Assembly: GCA_964547855.1 (NCBI GenBank)
Contig: CAZJPG010000001.1
Span: 82,632 to 146,631 of the forward strand
Reading direction: 5' to 3'
Source of the DNA: an uncultured Gammaproteobacteria bacterium
GTDB taxonomy: Bacteria; Patescibacteriota; Patescibacteriia; Patescibacteriales; WJLG01
Length of the DNA: 64,000 bases
Shown here: piece after piece, positions 606 to 22,038 of the stretch
Numbering within the stretch: the stretch's first letter is position 1
Layout of the letters: each line of letters begins with the position of its first letter
Notes under the pieces: model-generated
Databases searched by the model: none
The model's input: the letters and a program-made list of their open reading frames with translations, nothing else
What the model was told of the DNA's origin: nothing
Position numbers and translations under genes: made by a program

Positions 606-3600
606 CTATCCTCCGCCATCGTCATTTCTCCATCGATAATGGATTTGATCGAGCCAAGTCTTTCTGACCTGGAAAATATCAGGATAAGTATCCTCGTCTG
701 TGTGAACAGGAATGTCGGTGTCAGATGAATAAAGTTGCGCGGAATAATCAGTCGAAGTAGCGACAAAATTCTTACTAAAGATCAATTTGAAATAAAGATA
801 GCAGGTCCCGTCCGAACAGTCTGAATAACTTGATCCGTCGACCGAAGCCATGCTATTAGCATCGGTCCCCACTTCAGAGAAATCATCGCCCGCCCTGTCC
901 CACTTAAATTGCAAATCATCGAATGGCGCGGAATTATCACTGGAATTAGCCATGCGCAATATCACATAATCAAGGGCGCCCCATCCATCACTGTCTTGCA
1001 CCTGGGCGCGGAAAGTGAAAATTCCATCGGCCACAGCTATATTAGTAGAAGTCCCTAATGATTGCGGATCCATGAAAACTAAACCCTTATTGGTTACGAT
1101 GCCATCGGTCGATCCAGTCACTTCAGTAGACGACGTCTTGTTACCGTAGGCGTCATAAGCCCAAAGATTAAAGACATAATTACTCCCCTGCACTAGACCA
1201 GTGACCATAGTAGACGTGGCGCCACCAAAATCATAGGCATCCAAGTAAACTGAATCATGTTCATCATTGGCCTTGGTCACACCCGAAGTGCCAAGTTTGT
1301 AAAAGATCTTATAAGCATTCGATCCTGGCTCGCTATCATCTACGGCACGCTGTGAATATGGTAAAGATAAAAGTATTGAATCATAGGCGGTATCGATTAT
1401 AGCCATATTGCCAGCTGCCTGTGGAGGGGCATTATCTATCGAGATCGTGGTAGTAGCCGGGATTAACTGATCATCAGAACCGTCGTTCGCGGTCAATCGT
1501 AAGCAATAAGTACCAGTGGCCAGCCCCACATCATCCTTAGACAGCCAGCTAAAACTGACAGTATTAGGTCCGGCCGATGTCAGTATAAAGAATGATGTAG
1601 TACCGATTTGATAAGATTCATTATTATCGGCCTGAACAGAACCGAAACTAGAAACGATACTTGTCAGATCAATAGTATTTTTAGAAGGAGAGGAAAAATC
1701 ACAATGTCCACTACCAGGATAAACCGAATACTCCAGCTTAGCGCGCACAGTATTATCATCATTGGCGTCATCGACCTCTATCGATACATTAACCGAACCA
1801 GAGCCATCAGTTTCCTGTGTGACAGAATTGAAATAAGCTATCGGCGCATCATTGGCTATCACCTGCAGGGGCGATGTCGAGCTGGCCTTATTTCCATTAT
1901 CGTCATAAGCAAAAATATTGAACACATAAATAAGACCTGATGTCAGTCCAGTAACGGTAGTAGTCGCCGCACCGTTAAATTCAATATTCGACAGGTTAGC
2001 ATCGGACGACGAACCCCAAGCGTAATCATTTTCGGTCACAGGATTGCCGTCATACACCTTGTAAAATATCTTATACTCTGAAAAATGATTTTCTGTACTA
2101 GTAGCTCCCAAATCCAGAGAGGCTGTACTTCCAGTCTTACGAGACAACGTCAAAGGTCCTGGCATGGTCGGAGCCACATTGTCTATAGCTAAAGACGTCG
2201 TCGCTGGAACAGTTTGATCGTTTAATTGATCGTTAGCCGTCAATTTCAAACAATAAGTCGCATCGGCATTAGGAATATCCGCCTTAGAGTCCCAAGACAG
2301 CAGAACCGTATTAGTTCCAGATGCTGTCTTGATCCAACCAGTCGACGTTCCGATCTGATAAGTATCTTTGATGTTAATTTTTGGATCTCCGAAGTCAGCG
2401 GTAGTGGAAGCATCAGTCTCGGACAAGGTCGGTCGAAGCGGAGAGCCATGACAATTGGCATCGGCATAATATTCCAATTTAGCTCGGCAATCATCATTGG
2501 TGGAGTCGTCTATTTCAATGGAAACATCTACTCGTCCAGTGCCGTTAACCTTAAGGGAGGCCGAATTGAAGGAACCAGTTGGTGGCCCCTTGATCTCGTG
2601 AGCACCAAAAGAAAGCAACGGTGCAGGATAGGCATATTTACGAGCTTGGACAGCACCCCAAAGGTTTGTCTCGTCACCACCGGCATAACCAGTAGCTTCT
2701 ATGTCTTCATAATAGACGCCGAAAGGTTTTCCAGAAGAAGAGAAGATGCGCGATCCAGCCTGATACGACAAAGCATCATCAGCACCAAAGCGAACCATGC
2801 CAGGATAACGTCCGCTTTGTGGCGTGCAAGTAGAGCTAGCGACAAAATAATTATCTTGATCATAGACATTGATCACAAGCGTTCCGGTCTCTGGAGAACA
2901 AACGACATCCACATAAGCGGCATCGGTCGGTAACATATACTCCGAATTGAACTCTCGAAAAGGCAAGAACATAGTTTCCTGACGTCCATCGCTATCGTCT
3001 TGTTGTATAGACGATAAGGAACCGCTCTTGATATCAAGTCTAACGGCATTACCATTGCCCTCTACTCCACCAGAACAAGTAGTATTGTTCTGTCTTGACC
3101 CAGCGGCCATATTAGAGACAGAAGAAGAAGCTCGCGACGAGCACAAAATGTCAAAGGACGAAAGACTATGAGCAGCGATAATGTTGTACTGCGACTTGAC
3201 ACCAAAGAGATCTTCGCCGGTCGGCGGATAAGCCACAATGCCATCACCAGGGAAGTTAGTCGTTAAAGAGACTAGGACTGGGGCAGTGACTGAAATAATG
3301 GCCAAAGAATCAGTGGCAATGCTATTGATCACTGTCCTTGAATGACCGGAGACTATCGACTGTTGCCATTCCTGACTAGCCCCATCATACAAAGTCACAG
3401 TGGCATCGGACAGCACCGGCAAAAAATTAAATATCTCTAGGTCGCGATCGAATGGCAAAGTAAAATCTGTAGCCGCAAAAGATATCGGCGCGGCTGGCGG
3501 CGTAGCTGGACCACCTGAAACCTTAACGGCGATAGGTCCCTTGGCGCTGATCGTCGAGGAAGCGGTATAAGTAGTGAAAAAAGTTTTTCCTTGTCTATCA

Positions 3601-6575
3601 AGATTGACACTAGAACCTCCATCCACCTGAACTGAATTACCGTCTATTAAACTGACGACCTCTATGCTAGTGGAAGTTGCGGCCGAATTCACAAAATAAA
3701 CGCCTTGAACCGAAGAATAAGTGAATGGAGCATATTGATCGGAGGTGGTTGTAGCGGAAGAATTACCATAATACAGATATATCTTGGTCGTGGAAGCTGC
3801 CGGAACAGATGGAACTTTAACCCAAAACTTAGCCGAAGAAGCGGTGCGGTCAAAAGTTTGAGTCCAGAAATCCAACTCACTGGTCTCTGAATAATCAAGG
3901 AAACGTATATCTCCTCCATCGGTCCTGATATTGCGCCAAAGATCGGCCGTAGTAGACGATACCTGTATGTACACCTGCTGATCGGTCAAAGTCTGAGAAC
4001 CAGAACGATTGTCGACGGTTATTGGCATTCTAAAATTCCAACCTGAATTCCACCATGGATCCAAAAGGCCATAGCCGTCTTTATCGCCGACTGCTTCGAT
4101 GTAGAACTCTCCTTCGCTATTCGGTGAAAAATATATCGAAGCCTTATAATAGCGAACTTCGCCTGGAGCTATCAGATCCACGCTATCAAGGGTCGATCTA
4201 TCAACTTCAAGTTCGTCCGGCACATCTTTTGTCTGAGGACCTAAGGCCAAGATCTTATCCAAGAAACCCTTATCGGTCGATATCGGGAAATTACTCAAAG
4301 GAACCTCGGCCCAGCGATGTTTATAACGAACCTCTTGGCGAACGCCGGAGCGATATTCCTCTATTCTGCAATAACGGCGATTAGGGCTTACTTGATCGCA
4401 AACCCTGCTTTCACCGGTCGGATAACATTCGTAGTGATCATCTCTAGCGTCCCAACCATTATCACACTCAAAGACCGCTGGCTCGTAATAAGGGACCTCG
4501 GTTATATATGGCGAATTCTTGATCAGCTTTTTAAGACTGGCTACTCCGGATGTCGCCGAAGGGAAATAAAATTGTAAATTTATCTCCTCGTCACGAACAC
4601 CGACGTTCTCGACGCTAAAATAGACATCGGCATTGGAAAGCCCGAAATAACTTTTCTTATTGGTACGAATGATCAAATTCTCGTCTACATTATCATCGGT
4701 ATTTTCAAGATATATCCTTTGACCATCAATATCCAGAAAGTCCTTATCAGAAGAAGTAGAAACTCTTTCTATTGGAGGAGCTTTGACCTGATCATAGTCG
4801 GCCTCGACCCAAACGGCATCGAGATAGAAAAAATAATTTTCTCCTAAAGGAGTCTTGCCTTGGAATTTTATTTTCAAATTATCTATATCCTTCCACTTTT
4901 TAAGGAATGGAGCTGGCAAGAGCAAATAACCTCCATCTTCGGCATTGGACAAATCTCCAGCAGGAATGGAATAAAGCTCTTCCCAAGATTGATCTTCGGT
5001 CGAAGTCGAAAGCGAATACCAAACGACAATTTTATCTTCGCGTTGTTCTTCCTGTGCCTTAGCTTCCCTTAAACCGATGATATTAAAAAGCTTGCTGATT
5101 GGCGACTCCGATTCTGTGCTTGGTGCAGACTCTTGCGCCGGCTCTGGTGCTTGTTCTGAAGGCTGAACGACTTCTTCCGCTGATGATGGAGAGTCTATTG
5201 TTTCACTCTCTACCACGGTATTGGTATCGATCGTAACCTCGTTAGTGACAGTATCACTGCTACCCTGTTCGCCATTAAAATCATTCGAAACTACCGAATC
5301 GCTACCAACATCCCCAGCCGATGTCGCATCGTTAACACTAACATCTTCAACGGATGATTCGCCTTCGACATCAACATTACCGGCACTAGTAGACGTATCA
5401 TCGATTTCTGGTTGATCGGTCTGGTCGACTTGTTGTTCAGTGGTTTCAATGATTTCGCTTTCACCAGTGATCGCGCTAGCGTCCTGCTCCGCATTATCCC
5501 AGGCCTTATTGAAAGAAGCTAAAGATATTTTTATACGTGCCGAGCGGAAACGCCCAAAGGTTTCGTCGCGGTCATCGGTCTCAAGCAAATCTTGAGCCAT
5601 GGCTGGAGCTGGCAAAAAGACCTTGGCTAATTCCTTAAGGAAAGCATCGGTCTTAGATACTGGACCATCTACGACCGGCTCAGATGAAGACGATGAAATA
5701 TCGGCTACTGGTTCAATGTCCTCATTAATTGGCAAATGATTGCCAACTTCTTCGATTACCTGATCTTCCGTTACCGGCGTGGCATCCTCTTCGGCCTGAA
5801 CATCTGAAGATGACGAATCTAAATTTTGATCTAATTGTTGAACTTCTCCCATTCCTTCGCTAGAAACGATAGGCTCTATGGCCGAAGTATCGATACTGTC
5901 ATCGGAAGACGATGAAATAATAACAACCGATTCAGGGGAAGACGTCGATATGATCGACTCCTTGGTAGAAGTCCCTGTCGAAAATTCAGTGGATGAGGCT
6001 TTGATATCTTCTGTGAATATTTCCTTAAGAGCCGATTCGGATGTGGATGCGAAATCATCTTGCTCGCCTTCTTGCTGAGCCACTTCGGTGCGAATGAATT
6101 CGCGGGTAGTAAAATTCTCAGCGATCAAAGAATAATCGCCACCTTCATAGATGGCCGAATTCTCGGAATTGAAATCATCACGACCACCAACAGGAGCAAC
6201 CTCAGCTTCGCCCAAGACGCGATCGACCCCCGACCATCCACCACGCTCCTCAGCACGAACGGTGTTGGCAAAAAATTCAACGTGCGCAGTCTTCTGATCG
6301 AACGCGGAAAAAGCTTGTCTCAAGACAAAGACCGAAGCCACTAAACCAATGACATAAAACAGCAAAGGGATCGTGCGCAAAAATTCCCCATGAGCACCAG
6401 CCTTGGACTGAACAATTTTTTTATCCTCTGGCTCAATTATTTTTTCATCGCAATTTTTTTCAGACTTGTTTCTAAAACGTAAAACGCTCCCCTTCATCGC
6501 TGAAGGAGAAATATCAAAAACCAGAGGCTTTTTTCTTTTCTCGATTGTAGGGTTTTTCCCCTTTGCCATATACAT
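606..6575 (-). CDS. Giant (1989 aa) membrane-anchored surface protein with an acidic Ser/Thr-rich tract, a DUF2341-like module and two Ig-like+FN3-like modules
   Basis: Single uninterrupted ORF. It has one TM helix (LRTIPLLFYVIGLVASVFVL, near aa 66-88). DUF2341-like signature: WNFRMPITVDN...DGGDIRFLD...KFWVKVPSV...KIYLYYGN (nt ~3720-4045). FN3-like segments: YKIFYKVYDG...VTGLTSGLIYVFNIFAYDDNGN and YKIFYKLGTSG...VTGLVQGSNYVFNLWAYDAYGN. Confidence 0.85.
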   Translation of the reverse strand: MYMAKGKNPTIEKRKKPLVFDISPSAMKGSVLRFRNKSEKNCDEKIIEPEDKKIVQSKAGAHGEFLRTIPLLFYVIGLVASVFVLRQAFSAFDQKTAHVEFFANTVRAEERGGWSGVDRVLGEAEVAPVGGRDDFNSENSAIYEGGDYSLIAENFTTREFIRTEVAQQEGEQDDFASTSESALKEIFTEDIKASSTEFSTGTSTKESIISTSSPESVVIISSSSDDSIDTSAIEPIVSSEGMGEVQQLDQNLDSSSSDVQAEEDATPVTEDQVIEEVGNHLPINEDIEPVADISSSSSEPVVDGPVSKTDAFLKELAKVFLPAPAMAQDLLETDDRDETFGRFRSARIKISLASFNKAWDNAEQDASAITGESEIIETTEQQVDQTDQPEIDDTSTSAGNVDVEGESSVEDVSVNDATSAGDVGSDSVVSNDFNGEQGSSDTVTNEVTIDTNTVVESETIDSPSSAEEVVQPSEQAPEPAQESAPSTESESPISKLFNIIGLREAKAQEEQREDKIVVWYSLSTSTEDQSWEELYSIPAGDLSNAEDGGYLLLPAPFLKKWKDIDNLKIKFQGKTPLGENYFFYLDAVWVEADYDQVKAPPIERVSTSSDKDFLDIDGQRIYLENTDDNVDENLIIRTNKKSYFGLSNADVYFSVENVGVRDEEINLQFYFPSATSGVASLKKLIKNSPYITEVPYYEPAVFECDNGWDARDDHYECYPTGESRVCDQVSPNRRYCRIEEYRSGVRQEVRYKHRWAEVPLSNFPISTDKGFLDKILALGPQTKDVPDELEVDRSTLDSVDLIAPGEVRYYKASIYFSPNSEGEFYIEAVGDKDGYGLLDPWWNSGWNFRMPITVDNRSGSQTLTDQQVYIQVSSTTADLWRNIRTDGGDIRFLDYSETSELDFWTQTFDRTASSAKFWVKVPSVPAASTTKIYLYYGNSSATTTSDQYAPFTYSSVQGVYFVNSAATSTSIEVVSLIDGNSVQVDGGSSVNLDRQGKTFFTTYTASSTISAKGPIAVKVSGGPATPPAAPISFAATDFTLPFDRDLEIFNFLPVLSDATVTLYDGASQEWQQSIVSGHSRTVINSIATDSLAIISVTAPVLVSLTTNFPGDGIVAYPPTGEDLFGVKSQYNIIAAHSLSSFDILCSSRASSSVSNMAAGSRQNNTTCSGGVEGNGNAVRLDIKSGSLSSIQQDDSDGRQETMFLPFREFNSEYMLPTDAAYVDVVCSPETGTLVINVYDQDNYFVASSTCTPQSGRYPGMVRFGADDALSYQAGSRIFSSSGKPFGVYYEDIEATGYAGGDETNLWGAVQARKYAYPAPLLSFGAHEIKGPPTGSFNSASLKVNGTGRVDVSIEIDDSTNDDCRAKLEYYADANCHGSPLRPTLSETDASTTADFGDPKINIKDTYQIGTSTGWIKTASGTNTVLLSWDSKADIPNADATYCLKLTANDQLNDQTVPATTSLAIDNVAPTMPGPLTLSRKTGSTASLDLGATSTENHFSEYKIFYKVYDGNPVTENDYAWGSSSDANLSNIEFNGAATTTVTGLTSGLIYVFNIFAYDDNGNKASSTSPLQVIANDAPIAYFNSVTQETDGSGSVNVSIEVDDANDDNTVRAKLEYSVYPGSGHCDFSSPSKNTIDLTSIVSSFGSVQADNNESYQIGTTSFFILTSAGPNTVSFSWLSKDDVGLATGTYCLRLTANDGSDDQLIPATTTISIDNAPPQAAGNMAIIDTAYDSILLSLPYSQRAVDDSEPGSNAYKIFYKLGTSGVTKANDEHDSVYLDAYDFGGATSTMVTGLVQGSNYVFNLWAYDAYGNKTSSTEVTGSTDGIVTNKGLVFMDPQSLGTSTNIAVADGIFTFRAQVQDSDGWGALDYVILRMANSSDNSAPFDDLQFKWDRAGDDFSEVGTDANSMASVDGSSYSDCSDGTCYLYFKLIFSKNFVATSTDYSAQLYSSDTDIPVHTDEDTYPDIFQVRKTWLDQIHYRWRNDDGGG
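1095..2590 (-). repeat. Two tandem ~740-nt (~246-aa) divergent coding repeats inside the giant gene
   Basis: Unit 1 starts at GSFNSASLKVNGTGRVDVSIEIDD (nt ~2577) and unit 2 at AYFNSVTQETDGSGSVNVSIEVDD (nt ~1838). Landmarks are colinear: RAKLEY, YQIGT, YCL(K/R)LTAND, IDN(V/A)(A/P)P, YKIFYK, VTGL, YVFN..AYD..GNK. Confidence 0.75.
5100..6070 (-). other. Low-complexity acidic Ser/Thr/Asp/Glu-rich tract (~320 aa) of the giant protein
   Basis: The translation is dominated by S, T, D, E and V runs, e.g. STSSPESVVIISSSSDDSIDTS, DSSSSDVQAEEDATP, ADISSSSSEPVVDG, DDTSTSAGNVDVEGESSVEDVS. Confidence 0.8.
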
Positions 6576-17771: not shown

Positions 17772-18038
17772 TTATTTTTTGATCCTTATTAACTTAACAC
17801 GGTCGCCCGCGCCAGCCACCAGGGCCAAGGAGTCTTTAGGCACTCCGAATTCTTTAGCCAAAAAACGTAATAACTCGATATTGGCCTTGCCTCTTTCTGG
17901 TTGAGCGGCCACGGAAATCTTAATAGTCCCGTCGGCCATCACATCTTTAACCTCTGTCTTTGCGGCCCCAGGAATCGCCTTTATCTTAAGATAGACGCTG
18001 CCTTTTTCGTCCAACTCCACTCTCTCCTTAGAAAACAT
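17772..18038 (-). CDS. DUF167 (YggU-like) protein
   Basis: LKIKAIPGAAKTEV...ISVAAQPERGKANIELLRFLAKEFGVPK...AGAGDRVKLIRI matches the DUF167 pattern. I prefer ATG at 18038 (MFSKER...), 1 nt after the upstream stop, over the ORF-track start at 18134. Confidence 0.75.
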   Translation of the reverse strand: MFSKERVELDEKGSVYLKIKAIPGAAKTEVKDVMADGTIKISVAAQPERGKANIELLRFLAKEFGVPKDSLALVAGAGDRVKLIRIKK

Positions 18039-18039
18039 A

Positions 18040-19272
18040 CTATTTAGCCACGAACAACAAAGCGTTCGGTATGCTACGACCAGGACCGATCTTATATTCG
18101 TTGTTGTAATAAAGGGCGGTGGAATTTCCTCCATCTAAATTCATGGCATAATCCATCTTTAAAGCCTTCATCACTGCCGCCAAATCTTCTACTGTAGCGT
18201 TTCTAACGAATACTAGATATATGGTGCCGGCAGGATTGATACCAGCCTTGGTATAACCAATGGCGTTGCGCCAAGTCTTGGTCGTTCTTTGTCCATAATC
18301 CATATCAGAGGACTTAAGCACCACTGAGCCATTCTCTATTAGGCCAGGCTTATTGCTTATGGCCGCTGAGACTTTTTTCCCAGTCAACGATTCGAAATTA
18401 TCTACGCTCCTAAAGTCGGAAGCGGCGGAAAAATAATAGAATTTATTATCTTCGTCGAAAACCATCATTGGTCCAGTGGTCGGATACTTAGTCTGATCTT
18501 CATTTACCATGGTCTTTGATAACGTGTTATACACTGGCGAAAAATAATATCCGAGCTTAGAGCCCGTGTCGAAATAGCTACCGTTAACAGCGGCGAAGGC
18601 TTTATGATTGGCCACATAATCATAAAGCGATTTGGTAGGGCAATTAGAAGAACACTTCTCCACTCCAGCGGTATCGGTAACGACTTTTAGACTTAATTTA
18701 CTCAAAGCTATTTCCACGATATCGACATAAAAATCACCGCGATCGGTTTTTACGGTTTGGCGATATTTATAATTGCTAAAATTATTAGCGGCGTCATCCT
18801 TTTGAGCCTTAGGTATGGTATTCAAATTAGCCTTAGTTATCCCAAGCCCCAAGCGACGCATCACGGAGAATGCATCAGAAGGGCGGCCAAGATAATATTT
18901 TTTCAAATCGACCGGATTGACATACCAAGACTCACCGTTCTTTTCGACGCGCAAAAGAATGCGGCCGGAAAGTTTTTTGGCGAAAGCACGGTCGCCGGAA
19001 GCTGACGTACCTTCCTGGGCGATTCTCTGAAAATCCGCTTCAGACACACCAAGAGCCATTGTGCGCATCAAATTGAAAGCATCGGTCGGCCGACCCAGAT
19101 AAAAACGCTCCTTACCAACTGGATCGATATACCAAGCCTCACCCTTGCCCTCGACATCCAGAAGGATTCGACCAGACAAAGAATCAGCTAGTCCAGCGGC
19201 ATAGACCGGTGTAGCTGCCTTTGGGATCACAAAGGAAAGTACCAAAAACAAGATAAAAAAACCTTTTTTCAT
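18040..19272 (-). CDS. Secreted phosphodiester glycosidase (NAGPA-like) family protein with two N-terminal ~55-aa repeats
   Basis: Signal peptide MKKGFFILFLVLSFVIPKAATPVYA (start at 19272 preferred over 19350). C-terminal part has AAVNGSYFD and AMNLDGGNSTALY. N-terminal part has the duplicated SGRILL.VE..GE.WY..PV....YYLGRP.DAF..MR..(A/G)LG(V/I) motif. Confidence 0.72.
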   Translation of the reverse strand: MKKGFFILFLVLSFVIPKAATPVYAAGLADSLSGRILLDVEGKGEAWYIDPVGKERFYLGRPTDAFNLMRTMALGVSEADFQRIAQEGTSASGDRAFAKKLSGRILLRVEKNGESWYVNPVDLKKYYLGRPSDAFSVMRRLGLGITKANLNTIPKAQKDDAANNFSNYKYRQTVKTDRGDFYVDIVEIALSKLSLKVVTDTAGVEKCSSNCPTKSLYDYVANHKAFAAVNGSYFDTGSKLGYYFSPVYNTLSKTMVNEDQTKYPTTGPMMVFDEDNKFYYFSAASDFRSVDNFESLTGKKVSAAISNKPGLIENGSVVLKSSDMDYGQRTTKTWRNAIGYTKAGINPAGTIYLVFVRNATVEDLAAVMKALKMDYAMNLDGGNSTALYYNNEYKIGPGRSIPNALLFVAK

Positions 19273-19305
19273 ATGATAGATTTTAATTTTCTCCCTGATA
19301 ATACT

Positions 19306-19334
19306 AGTATATACCCTAATATGGCAGTCGACAA
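19306..19334 (-). promoter_or_regulatory. Possible promoter of the phosphodiester glycosidase gene
   Basis: Minus strand: TTGTCG, 17 nt, TATACT, about 35 nt upstream of the ATG at 19272. Confidence 0.3.
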
Positions 19335-19335
19335 A

Positions 19336-19364
19336 TTGACAAAAAATCACTTTTTACCTAAAAT
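19336..19364 (+). promoter_or_regulatory. Near-consensus sigma70 promoter of the orphan two-gene cassette
   Basis: TTGACA (19336-19341), 17-nt spacer, TAAAAT (19359-19364). The SD sequence AAGGAGG follows at 19408-19414. Confidence 0.55.
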
Positions 19365-19421
19365 AACCAATGCTACTTTTTTAGACCTTTTTCAATTAAC
19401 AGTCCCAAAGGAGGGTGCTTA

Positions 19422-19892
19422 ATGGTTTATTTCGGGATTAACCCCAAGTTTAGCCCATTTTACGGAACAGTGATCTCTCAACAAGAGACATTAAATGGGG
19501 TGTATCTACCTCACCAGGTCATTAAGAATGGCCACGGCGATGTATTCTTTGCAAAGAAATTCTCCGGAATCATCACCGACGAAACCAAGAAAAAAGTTAA
19601 CGTCGAGGCATCGCCGAGAAACGATATGAGCCGCCTGGTGATCACGCCGGATATAGGCAACGTAACGGGCAAAGTTCTGGGGGCAGACAGTTTTGCATTA
19701 GGCCGAAACGCCTTCTTCAATTATCTGGAAATTAGTCTTCCTGATGGAGGGATAATTTACGTCGCCTTCAGGCCAAGACCGTCCGAGAGAAGAACTATGG
19801 CGCGTCCCCTTGTCGGAAAAACGATCGAAATCAAAAAAGATCAATTGTTCGTTTTGAGTGGCAAAGGAGAAAAAGAAGCATGGCCGAAATAA
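19422..19892 (+). CDS. Hypothetical protein (156 aa), no family recognised
   Basis: AAGGAGG lies 7 nt upstream of the ATG. The ORF is flanked by a promoter and a terminator and overlaps the next ORF by 13 nt. Confidence 0.6.
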   Translation: MVYFGINPKFSPFYGTVISQQETLNGVYLPHQVIKNGHGDVFFAKKFSGIITDETKKKVNVEASPRNDMSRLVITPDIGNVTGKVLGADSFALGRNAFFNYLEISLPDGGIIYVAFRPRPSERRTMARPLVGKTIEIKKDQLFVLSGKGEKEAWPK

Positions 19893-20173
19893 CTTGCACG
19901 GTTTGGAAAGTGAGCTATAACGGCCTTAGCCGGAAAAAATACACGGCTAAATTCCAAGCGATGCGGGGTGTCATAAAATGTCATGAACGCCTAGACGACG
20001 CGCTCTTGTTCACTATGACCTCTGTTAAAAGAATATTGGTCGGGAAGAAAAGGGCGCAGAAAAAGATCACCAGCTACTTCGCCGTAAAGTACGACGAACT
20101 TGAAGGTGAGACACCGCTTGAAATTCAAAACAAGACTGTCACGGTTAAGCCCAATGGGATAACGGTCGAATAA
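19880..20173 (+). CDS. Hypothetical basic protein (97 aa), no family recognised
   Basis: AAGGAGA lies 9 nt upstream of the ATG. Lys/Arg-rich (RKKYTAKFQAMRG, VGKKRAQKK). Followed by a strong terminator. Confidence 0.55.
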   Translation: MAEITCTVWKVSYNGLSRKKYTAKFQAMRGVIKCHERLDDALLFTMTSVKRILVGKKRAQKKITSYFAVKYDELEGETPLEIQNKTVTVKPNGITVE

Positions 20174-20185
20174 AAAACGACCACC

Positions 20186-20216
20186 TGCCGAACTCCAAAT
20201 CGAGTTCGGCATTTTT
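20186..20216 (+). terminator. Rho-independent terminator of the orphan cassette
   Basis: TGCCGAACTCcaaatcGAGTTCGGCAttttt: perfect 10-bp stem followed by T5. Confidence 0.78.
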
Positions 20217-20280
20217 ATTGCACGGCATTGGCTAAAAACAAAAAAGGCGGATATTATCCGTCTTTTTTATTTCTCATTCT

Positions 20281-21282
20281 TTATTTGTTGTCTTTGGCTA
20301 GCTGGCCACAGGCTGCTTTGATGTCGGTTCCGAACTTATGGCGCTGAACGACTTCAATGCCTTCTTTTTCCAGAATTCTTTTAAACGCAGCGACATCCTC
20401 TTTATCGGCTGGTTGATATTTCCCGGTCGGATTGTAGTTAACTAAATTAACCACAAATAATTTTCCCAACTCCCTATTCAAAACATCGGCCAACTCCAAA
20501 GCATGTTCCTCTTTTTCGTTTATGTGTTTAAGCATCACATATTCGATCATTACTTTCCGGTTGGTCTTTTTAATGTAATCAGCGATAGCTTTAAGCAAAG
20601 ATTTAAACGGATAGTTCTTAGATATCGGCATGATCTCGTTGCGGATACCTTCGTTCGGAGCGTGCAAAGAGATAGCTAAGTTCAACTGTAAAGGCTCGTT
20701 GGCGAATTTTTTTATACCATCGATGATGCCGACGGTAGAGATCGATATCTTGCGCGCGCCGATATTAAAAGTCTCTTCATCATTAAAGAAGCGAACGGCC
20801 TTCATAACTTCGTCATAATTCAAAAACGGCTCACCCATGCCCATGAAAACTATATTGGAAACGCGTTCCTCGGTTTTTTTTAAGCGACGAGCGAACAGAA
20901 GGACTTGCTCGACGATCTCATAAGAATCCAAATCACGAACAAAGCCATGGCGACCGGTATAGCAAAAAGTGCAGGCCAATTTACAGCCAAGCTGTGATGA
21001 CACACAGACAGTGTTTCTGTCATCGTGCTTCATTAAAACGGTCTCGACCACTCCGCCATCGACCTCGATAGCTGCTTTGGCCGACTGACCATTTTGGCTC
21101 TCCAAGACTTCAGCCTTAATATCGAGAGGTGCTTCGGCCTTCAATCTGTCGCGTAAAGCCGATGGTAGGTTAGTGGCCTCGTCCCAATCTTCGATAAATT
21201 TTGAAAAGACCGCCTCATAAACTTGCTTGGAGCGGAATTTTGGCTCATCTTTAAGTATTTCTTGTATTTTAGCGATATTCAT
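20281..21282 (-). CDS. rlmN: 23S rRNA/tRNA (adenine-C2)-methyltransferase, radical SAM
   Basis: 333 aa. FRSKQVYEAVF, VCVSSQLGCKLACTFCYTG (CxxxCxxC), MGMGEPFLNY, and the C-terminal catalytic Cys context DIKAACGQL. Confidence 0.92.
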   Translation of the reverse strand: MNIAKIQEILKDEPKFRSKQVYEAVFSKFIEDWDEATNLPSALRDRLKAEAPLDIKAEVLESQNGQSAKAAIEVDGGVVETVLMKHDDRNTVCVSSQLGCKLACTFCYTGRHGFVRDLDSYEIVEQVLLFARRLKKTEERVSNIVFMGMGEPFLNYDEVMKAVRFFNDEETFNIGARKISISTVGIIDGIKKFANEPLQLNLAISLHAPNEGIRNEIMPISKNYPFKSLLKAIADYIKKTNRKVMIEYVMLKHINEKEEHALELADVLNRELGKLFVVNLVNYNPTGKYQPADKEDVAAFKRILEKEGIEVVQRHKFGTDIKAACGQLAKDNK

Positions 21283-21405: not shown

Positions 21406-22038
21406 TTATTTTACAAGCTCTATGTCTTTTATGACAATCTCTGATGTCGGGTGGTCATTTTCGTTCGTCGGCAGATTTTCTATCTTGTCGACAATATCCA
21501 TTCCCTTGATGACCTGACCGAAGTTAGTGTGCTTGCCGTCCAACCAAGGAGTCGATTCGGCAGTGACGATGAAAAATTGAGAGCCATTGGTATCTGGTCC
21601 AGAATTGGCCATGGCCAAAGATCCGCGGACCAACAAATGTGAATTGAATTCATCAGCAAAACGATAACCAGGGCCGCCGCGACCATCATTGCCCCAGTCA
21701 TCATCCTTAGAATTAGGATCGCCTCCCTGAATCATAAAATCCTTAATGATGCGATGAAAAGAGGTTCCATTATAGAGTCCTATTTTGGCCAAATTCATAA
21801 AATTATTTACCGTGAACGGAGATTCTCCGTTATAGAACTCAATCTCTATGTCGCCGAGATTAGTCTTTATGATCGCCCCTTTATATTCTTTATAGAGATC
21901 CTCAAAAGAATTAGGATCGGCCTTGTCTGGACTCTGCTTAGCAGTTTCGTTGTTCATAGTTTTTTCATTGATAGCGCCTTGGCCGGCACATCCAGCCAAA
22001 ACTAGAATGAAGAACAATGGGATAATTAATTTTTTCAT
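21406..22038 (-). CDS. Cyclophilin-type peptidyl-prolyl cis-trans isomerase, lipoprotein
   Basis: Lipobox LAGC after a signal sequence. FHRIIKDFMIQGGDP, LAMANSGPDTNGSQFFI, LDGKHTNFG. Confidence 0.92.
   Translation of the reverse strand: MKKLIIPLFFILVLAGCAGQGAINEKTMNNETAKQSPDKADPNSFEDLYKEYKGAIIKTNLGDIEIEFYNGESPFTVNNFMNLAKIGLYNGTSFHRIIKDFMIQGGDPNSKDDDWGNDGRGGPGYRFADEFNSHLLVRGSLAMANSGPDTNGSQFFIVTAESTPWLDGKHTNFGQVIKGMDIVDKIENLPTNENDHPTSEIVIKDIELVK

Follow-up and report, generated by a model that had tools for sequence, protein, structure and literature searches.

A predicted clade-restricted two-gene operon encoding undescribed, fast-evolving proteins at a fixed chromosomal position in Patescibacteria

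Background

A 64,000-nucleotide stretch of contig CAZJPG010000001.1 (assembly GCA_964547855.1, positions 82,632 to 146,631; hereafter the window) from an uncultured bacterium that GTDB places in Patescibacteriota carries two small overlapping genes, which we call A and B, on the plus strand between NAGPA and rlmN. What are these genes, how did they come to lie there, and what could their proteins do? The initial annotation saw an orphan cassette inserted among minus-strand housekeeping genes, recognised neither protein, and proposed a module of the toxin-antitoxin or small accessory/defence kind. Patescibacteria genomes are small and rich in unannotated genes, and which of these are lineage-defining and which accessory is largely unsettled.

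Here we compared the locus across related lineages and searched sequence, profile and structure collections with both proteins. The pair is very likely a vertically inherited, positionally fixed, clade-restricted bicistronic operon, as far as synteny and architecture can tell. Our best overall explanation, held tentatively and at somewhat short of an even chance, is that this inherited, coupled operon encodes a non-enzymatic hetero-oligomer that binds nucleic acid.

Results

Wherever the DNA and its flanks could be read, homologues of A lay next to homologues of B, gene order and chromosomal slot were unchanged, and NAGPA was divergent upstream and rlmN convergent downstream. Readable DNA came from seven lineages: the window, L090 (to L092), L083-L088 (including L084), L089, L093 (to L096), L098 and L099. 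In L090-L092 and L093 the order is GT2-GT2-MFS-DUF167-NAGPA on the minus strand, A-B on the plus strand, and rlmN-PPIase-RseP-RRF onward on the minus strand. The short contigs of L083-L088, L098 and L099 have a convergent rlmN 3' of the pair, and L084 also has a divergent NAGPA 5' of it. Throughout L093-L096 rlmN is convergent downstream, and NAGPA lies divergently upstream in every case in which the contig extends that far; the L089 contig terminates in the C-terminal motif of rlmN, CGQLAR.

The expression signals of the pair are kept as well. Four lineages (the window, L090 at 9905, L084 at 638 and L093 at 9894) have kept the promoter hexamers at a 17-nt spacing, and the Shine-Dalgarno site of A recurs in relatives as AAAGGAGG or AAAGGGG. 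Six lineages (the window, L090, L084, L099, L098 and L089) share the 13-nt overlap of the two genes, ATGGCN(G/A)AANT(A/G)A, together with a purine-rich, Shine-Dalgarno-like tract 5' of B; L093 has a TAATG stop/start overlap in its place. A GC-rich hairpin and then a T-run follow B in L090, L084, L089, L098 and L099, and a hairpin with a T-run is also present after B in L093.

We looked for signs of insertion at the locus, which showed neither flanking direct repeats nor a tRNA, an Rfam element or an integrase. Its surroundings consist of rlmN, PPIase, RseP, RRF, holB and glycan/envelope genes, and include no defence or mobility genes. A profile search of the window found no paralogue of A or B elsewhere, and plasmids, phages, IMG/VR and JGI metagenome contigs held no relatives save one contig already known. 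Around rlmN in 80 distant Patescibacteria loci (rlmN 41-57% identical), tblastn and profile hidden Markov models found no homologue of either gene; two of these loci, L039 and L037, have a gap of cassette size after rlmN, but it holds a superoxide dismutase gene and not A-B. The fixed slot, taken with the conserved promoter, overlap and terminator, argues for vertical inheritance and against insertion or mobility. Thus, the earlier description of the cassette as inserted does not hold, and the suggested survey of homologue neighbourhoods returned a single fixed slot.

In the window, the promoter, the two Shine-Dalgarno sites, the 13-nt overlap and the 10-bp terminator that had been reported were all confirmed in the sequence (Table 1), and so was the statement that this is the only plus-strand unit between 13.4 and 26 kb: every other long open reading frame (ORF) there lies on the minus strand. 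The Shine-Dalgarno site of B sits within the codons of A's conserved C-terminal K-G-E-K. The overlap suggests a translational-coupling junction. The terminator folds at -17.2 kcal/mol (z -5.6), and 0 of 200 shuffled sequences were as stable. Read from these elements, A and B are a self-contained two-gene transcription unit with strong expression signals, whose overlap, promoter and terminator are conserved in relatives.

Coding signal and conservation indicate that both ORFs are genuine genes. We derived a codon model from 43 long window ORFs and scored all six frames with it; the highest value for A (0.11 bits per codon) and for B (0.15) was that of its own frame, and both values exceed the 99th percentile of off-frame segments. 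Both frames are kept in the seven lineages at 23-67% amino-acid identity, and the proportion of non-synonymous differences (pN) is far below that of synonymous ones (pS) for both genes in all pairs compared. The same organism was assembled independently from anaerobic-digester metagenomes as L001 and L002, in which 14 sites and 1 site depart from the window; the sole single-nucleotide polymorphism within the cassette among the three independent assemblies is synonymous. The reading of A and B as spurious ORFs, or as a non-coding or RNA feature, has nothing in its favour beyond the absence of annotated homologues; the frame-specific signal, the frames conserved in seven lineages with pN below pS, the confident predicted fold of A (below) and the absence of any Rfam match to the cassette leave it effectively refuted. 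The initial annotation had allowed that the ORFs might lack conservation or coding signal, and both were found. It had also allowed that their homologues might be conserved core genes of known housekeeping function: within the clade the pair is indeed core-like, but a housekeeping function is not known.

Neither A nor B had a match in Pfam, NCBIfam, PHROGs or PADLOC (PADLOC at E up to 1). When their homologues and a third small gene, C (below), were included, the family libraries returned only sub-threshold noise (Rep3_C, APG6, SM-ATX and YtfE, E 0.03-0.06), and PDB sequence and profile searches with A and B gave nothing meaningful. A k-mer-indexed search of 5.8 billion clusters retrieved only A and B themselves. 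The exhaustive HMMER search (phmmer) of 1.84 billion representatives, with A and B concatenated as the query, found five homologues of A (P0003, P0004, P0005, P0008 and P0011, 28-47% identity) and three of B (P0006, P0007 and P0009, 33-52% identity), and an indexed profile search contributed one more member of the B family, P0014. The pair is therefore an orphan by the indexed search but not by the exhaustive one, which reveals a small family. Judged by these searches, A and B belong to no described family, in agreement with the first reading of the proteins, and their own family appears tiny and restricted to a narrow clade of Patescibacteria.

Three other phmmer matches were set aside. P0010, a 3,617-aa repeat protein, reached E 2.6e-7 as a relative of A; this score is the sum of seven weak repeats (a single one gives 31 bits), it falls in the variable part of the A family, and the A-family profile does not support it (hhalign probability 0.3%), so that we regard it as a repeat-inflated chance similarity. 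Its repeat presumably resembles a malectin-type carbohydrate-binding repeat. The match to P0012 crosses the artificial A+B junction of the query, and that to P0013, a repetitive protein that we take to be cadherin-like, covers 30 residues.

At the structural level, the AlphaFold2 model of A, built on a six-sequence alignment, is confident and all-beta (predicted local distance difference test, pLDDT, 91.5; predicted TM-score, pTM, 0.84). Five strands occupy residues 3-61 and four strands residues 71-116, followed by a short helical turn and a three-strand unit at 134-154. In the model, A would thus consist of a pair of small beta-barrels in tandem (about residues 1-62 and 70-118) and a C-terminal three-strand unit. 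Foldseek found no significant neighbour of A in PDB (best eIF5A, E 0.054, TM 0.27) or in BFVD (best E 0.09). The weak matches were mostly small-barrel or oligonucleotide/oligosaccharide-binding (OB) proteins: the LigE OB domain, Thermus SSB, RPA and Teb1, besides EF-Tu domains 2 and 3, the DnaE OB domain and phage SSB-like proteins. With no match significant, the label OB-like rests on a trend among weak matches and not on a test. The Foldseek matches of B in PDB were noise, PriB and SSB included. The profile and structure searches that had been suggested for both proteins thus gave no significant family or fold match.

The invariant positions of A are F4, F10, F13, G15, G26, P30, G83, V85, F91, G94, F98, F99, L102, F116, R117, P118, L130, K133 and W154. 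Nearly all its conserved positions are aromatic, Gly, Pro or aliphatic, plus R117 and K133, and the family alignment holds no conserved Asp, Glu, His, Cys or Ser. Invariant residues of this scaffold type, with no acidic, His, Cys or Ser residue conserved, argue against an enzyme, and the earlier statement that no catalytic motif is present stands. In B an H-E-R motif is conserved, except in the L093 lineage, which has lost it; the protein is Lys/Arg-rich as first described, and A has an equal isoelectric point (pI; Table 1). Whole-profile hhalign of A against B found no homology. At the domain level there were weak similarities between the first and second domains of A (P 4e-4), the first domain of A and B (P 2e-3), and the C-terminal unit of A and the C-terminus of B (P 1e-3). 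These are mutually consistent, and hint at a duplicated module.

A and B have diverged several times faster than every gene around them. Between L090 and the window, most flanking proteins are 72-92% identical (rlmN 87%, NAGPA 85%, RseP 87%, RRF 87%), with GT2a at 56% and DUF167 at 67%, whereas A is 40% and B 62% identical. For L083/L084 against the window the values are 87-89% for rlmN, 46% for A and 59% for B; for L093 they are 81% for rlmN, 76% for RseP and 59-61% for NAGPA, against 36-39% for A and 23% for B, this last still recognised by the family profile (E 4.6e-8). Across the syntenic lineages A stays at 36-47% identity, and B at 59-62% in the two closest. The non-synonymous rate (dN) between the window and L090 is 0.62 for A and 0.32 for B, compared with 0.08-0.14 for rlmN, RseP, RRF, NAGPA, PPIase and MFS; that of A is 5-9 times that of rlmN and the flanks.

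The synonymous rate (dS) is saturated in most pairs, including the window against L090, so that selection tests are weak. In the least saturated pair, L090 against L099, A has a dN/dS (omega) of 0.22 and B one of 0.33, against 0.045 for rlmN. Along A omega is about 0.1 at residues 86-157 and 0.4-0.67 at residues 25-85, and the positive-selection test in this single usable pair gave omega below 1 in every region measured. Purifying selection thus acts on A and B, though far less strongly than on the genes around them, or selection is in part diversifying. In the same pair, the cassette has a lower pS (0.34-0.51) than the adjacent rlmN (0.70) despite its higher dN, which may reflect allele exchange or constraint on synonymous sites.

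The locus also varies in gene content. In L090 and L084 the spacer from NAGPA to A is about 545 bp, compared with 149 bp in the window (L090:9457-10000, L084:186-735 and window 19273-19421), and carries a small gene, C, of 84-85 aa. C has a promoter and a terminator to itself, and the A promoter is repeated after it. The L090 and L084 versions of C share only 36% identity. Positions 10-72 of the window spacer align to 10-70 of the L090 spacer, the flank of promoter 1, and positions 63-98 to 448-483, at promoter 2. The two alignments share ATTGACAAAA, the direct repeat whose two copies flank C in L090 and L084; because they overlap on it, the window differs from L090/L084 by an indel of about 380 bp bounded by the repeat. 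The outgroup L093 also lacks C, and a gain on the L090/L084 branch would be slightly more parsimonious than two losses. C aligns collinearly but weakly to the first domain of A (55-68 columns, P 3e-3 to 6e-3), so the gain could have come about by duplication of the promoter and the 5' part of A.

Table 1. Positions of the A-B operon and its signals in the window
Feature	Positions	Strand	Details
Gene A (ORF A)	19422..19892	+	156 aa, pI 9.66, all-beta
Gene B (ORF B)	19880..20173	+	97 aa, pI 9.66, 18/97 Lys+Arg, beta-rich
Sigma-70-type promoter of the A-B operon, TTGACA-17-TAAAAT	19336..19364	+	11/12 consensus positions
-35 box region, ATTGACAAAA	19335..19344	+	direct repeat, two copies flanking C in L090 and L084
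Shine-Dalgarno site of A, AAGGAGG	19408..19414	+	7 nt 5' of the ATG
Shine-Dalgarno site of B, AAGGAGA	19864..19870	+	9 nt 5' of B's ATG
A/B overlap, ATGGCCGAAATAA	19880..19892	+	13 nt; end of A W-P-K-stop, start of B M-A-E
Intrinsic terminator of the A-B operon	20186..20219	+	perfect 10-bp stem and 6-nt loop (20186..20211), then T-run
Second hairpin, between A/T runs	20240..20268	none assigned	minus-strand dG -13.5 kcal/mol, z -5.4; likely terminator of convergent rlmN, may act bidirectionally
Promoter-like site of the divergent NAGPA/DUF167/MFS/GT2 operon, TTGTCG-17-TATACT	19306..19334	-	back to back with the A-B promoter; stretch 89% identical to L090

Regarding the organisms, the closest rlmN to that of the window (20281-21282, minus strand) among 185,579 GTDB species representatives is only 57% identical, while metagenome contigs and one metagenome-assembled genome (GCA_964395625.1) hold rlmN genes 74-89% identical to it. 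The clade that carries the pair seems to be absent from that representative collection. Samples with sequence identical to the window are anaerobic-digester metagenomes.

Between the terminator of B and the end of rlmN, relatives (L089:900-1020, and L084 and L099 just past the terminator of B) have a tandem heptamer array, (TTGCTAT)n, and related TTGCTAAT/ATCGCTAATCATTA repeats; the window has none there.

Among the neighbouring genes, NAGPA (18040-19350, minus strand) is listed as a 436-aa ORF that begins at GTG. Its true start is likely the ATG at 19272, which gives 410 aa, as called in L001/L090; read from this ATG, the protein has the N-terminus MKKGFFILFLVLSF, which resembles a signal peptide. 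Within the N-terminal region (about residues 30-190) lie internal repeats of about 60 aa that also match proteins of the distant Patescibacteria loci. The DUF167 (YggU) ORF (17772-18134, minus strand), in its listed extent, runs into the 3' end of NAGPA; in relatives the gene is called from an internal start, for 88 aa (about 17772-18038 in the window). The cyclophilin-type PPIase (21406-22038, minus strand) has a lipoprotein-type signal with an LPAM_1-like N-terminus and is probably a foldase that is exported or anchored; the L090 orthologue is 24 residues longer. Further away, a giant ORF (606-6575, minus strand) encodes 1,989 aa, and the syntenic L090/L091 gene encodes at least 2,335 aa, with no Pfam domain on record.

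Discussion

We consider the families of A and B undescribed, but their general kind is a familiar one: small beta-barrel proteins encoded in a coupled operon. In the mechanism that we propose, the near-consensus sigma-70 promoter would drive a single mRNA with a leader of about 50 nt. A would be translated from its strong Shine-Dalgarno site and B from a start 13 nt 5' of A's stop, and the strong hairpin would end the transcript ahead of convergent rlmN. Synthesis of the two proteins would be coupled and near-equimolar, and they would assemble as a hetero-oligomer; it is the conserved overlap that points to co-translation and to this assembly. In sister lineages, the hetero-oligomer may include C as a third, paralogue-like protein.

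The A-B complex would act as a non-enzymatic binding scaffold, since the conserved residues of A are of scaffold type and catalytic-type ones are not conserved. That its ligand is a nucleic acid (single-stranded DNA or RNA) or another polyanion, by analogy with small-barrel/OB-type proteins, is possible though doubtful; it is suggested by small-barrel architecture combined with basic charge, in the absence of catalytic residues. A further elaboration, which we regard as unlikely, would make A, B and C paralogous small-barrel subunits of an undescribed, clade-specific, RPA-/Sm-like heteromeric nucleic-acid-binding complex that arose by duplication of module and promoter, is highly expressed, and diversifies rapidly via phage/host conflict, possibly with allele exchange.

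Several observations weigh against a nucleic-acid-binding hetero-oligomer. The model of A depends on an alignment of just six sequences, little trust can be placed in that of B (pLDDT 57.5), and the structural matches all fall short of significance (best E 0.05, TM <=0.3). The P-values behind the module duplication are weak once corrected for about 10 comparisons. Basic charge on its own is weak evidence of nucleic-acid binding, and fast evolution would be unusual for core nucleic-acid-handling proteins. Finally, the codon scores of A and B lie at the low edge of the host in-frame distribution (5th percentile 0.14-0.18), so that their codon usage is somewhat atypical; this sits awkwardly with the high expression implied by the promoter.

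Comparison with known systems gives partial likenesses. The best Foldseek match of A is Leishmania eIF5A (1xtd, over 161 columns); A is of similar size to eIF5A/EF-P and would likewise have two small beta-barrels in tandem, and EF-Tu domains 2 and 3 and ribosomal barrel proteins are among its weak matches. However, neither TM nor E supports kinship, and there is no Pfam or NCBIfam EF-P/eIF5A match. The A loop K-N-G-H-G (residues 35-39) is only superficially like the hypusine loop: it varies within the family (KNGHG, RNGRG, KNGKP, KDDNQ and ETEGG), with no conserved basic residue at its tip. Moreover, A evolves fast, unlike translation factors.

The OB-fold binders (SSB, the two-OB Thermus SSB, RPA, PriB, Teb1, and the DnaE and ligase OB domains) recur among the weak structural matches of A and B (E 0.05-1, TM <=0.3-0.35). 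Further likenesses are that A and B are basic, that several aromatic positions are conserved in A and, with RPA subunits, that A, B and C are possibly built from a duplicated barrel module, for which there are hints. Yet none of these matches is significant, Pfam SSB and tRNA_anti are not matched, and the order of strands and helix in the A model does not clearly follow the canonical OB topology.

The initial proposal was a toxin-antitoxin or small defence/accessory module; on that reading one product would inhibit growth, its partner would neutralise it and coupling would fix their ratio. In its favour is the compact, autonomous architecture. As in type II toxin-antitoxin operons, two small genes overlap briefly, have their own promoter and terminator, and diverge rapidly; the proteins are small and basic, B models poorly alone, as partner-dependent antitoxins often do, and codon usage is slightly atypical. 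Mobile toxin-antitoxin and defence modules are typically patchy in presence and variable in context. A-B, in contrast, occupies the same locus wherever flanks are readable, with no paralogues or copies in other contexts, and is absent from the plasmids, phages and viral contigs searched. Neither protein matches a toxin or antitoxin family in PADLOC, Pfam, NCBIfam or PHROGs, or a toxin or antitoxin fold in PDB by Foldseek (MazF/CcdB, RelE, HicA or other). No helix-turn-helix (HTH), ribbon-helix-helix (RHH), AbrB or Phd/YefM domain was detected in A or B, the model of B being of low confidence; there is no clear operator palindrome, A has no conserved catalytic-type residues, and the locus lies outside any defence island, defence and mobility genes being absent from its neighbourhood. 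Both the distribution, which is fixed and not patchy, and the lack of a family or fold match disfavour this proposal, which we now find improbable. Somewhat more improbable still is a pair of DNA-binding regulators for the divergent envelope operon (NAGPA, DUF167, MFS, GT2, GT2), acting at the shared promoters. Divergent layouts of regulator and target are common in bacteria, and here the window, L090, L084 and L093 all keep the two promoters divergent with overlapping -35 regions; both proteins are also basic. But neither protein has a detected HTH, RHH, AbrB or other DNA-binding domain, a near-consensus promoter with strong Shine-Dalgarno sites is atypical for regulators, and no operator-like palindrome is prominent in the spacer, where the best inverted repeats are AT-rich and 74-90% complementary. 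The fast divergence of A beside an 89%-conserved promoter region is also hard to square with sequence-specific recognition.

The rate data bring in another alternative, a rapidly diversifying conflict or host-association module, that is, an anti-phage or anti-host factor or an effector/immunity-like pair of an epibiont lineage, with alleles exchanged by recombination. The 5-9-fold faster evolution of A, the peaks of omega at its residues 25-85, a cassette pS below that of rlmN that is compatible with allele exchange, the deviation of A's identity pattern from the rlmN tree, and the presence or absence of C would all agree with it. Against this, omega is below 1 in all measured regions, saturation weakens the tests in most pairs, no signal peptide or transmembrane segment appears in A or B on direct reading of the sequences, and relaxed constraint accounts for the same numbers; we hold it unlikely, to about the same degree as the RPA-/Sm-like elaboration. 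The inherited, coupled operon with a non-enzymatic binding hetero-oligomer remains our preferred, if tentative, reading.

Conclusions

Clade-restricted hypothetical pairs are common in Patescibacteria, and A-B is a clean example of one: restricted to a clade, equipped with strong expression signals, fixed in position, and evolving 5-9 times faster than its housekeeping neighbours. Its noteworthy features are the contrast in rate at a fixed locus, a confidently predicted fold for which no structural relative was found, and the gain or loss of the paralogue-like C between promoter copies. The practical value is mostly negative, in that architecture alone is no ground for cataloguing A-B as a toxin-antitoxin or defence candidate. 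If A and B do not form a new heteromeric nucleic-acid-binding complex, they remain one of many hypothetical pairs. If they do, the finding would add a protein family and would show small-barrel subunits arising by local duplication.

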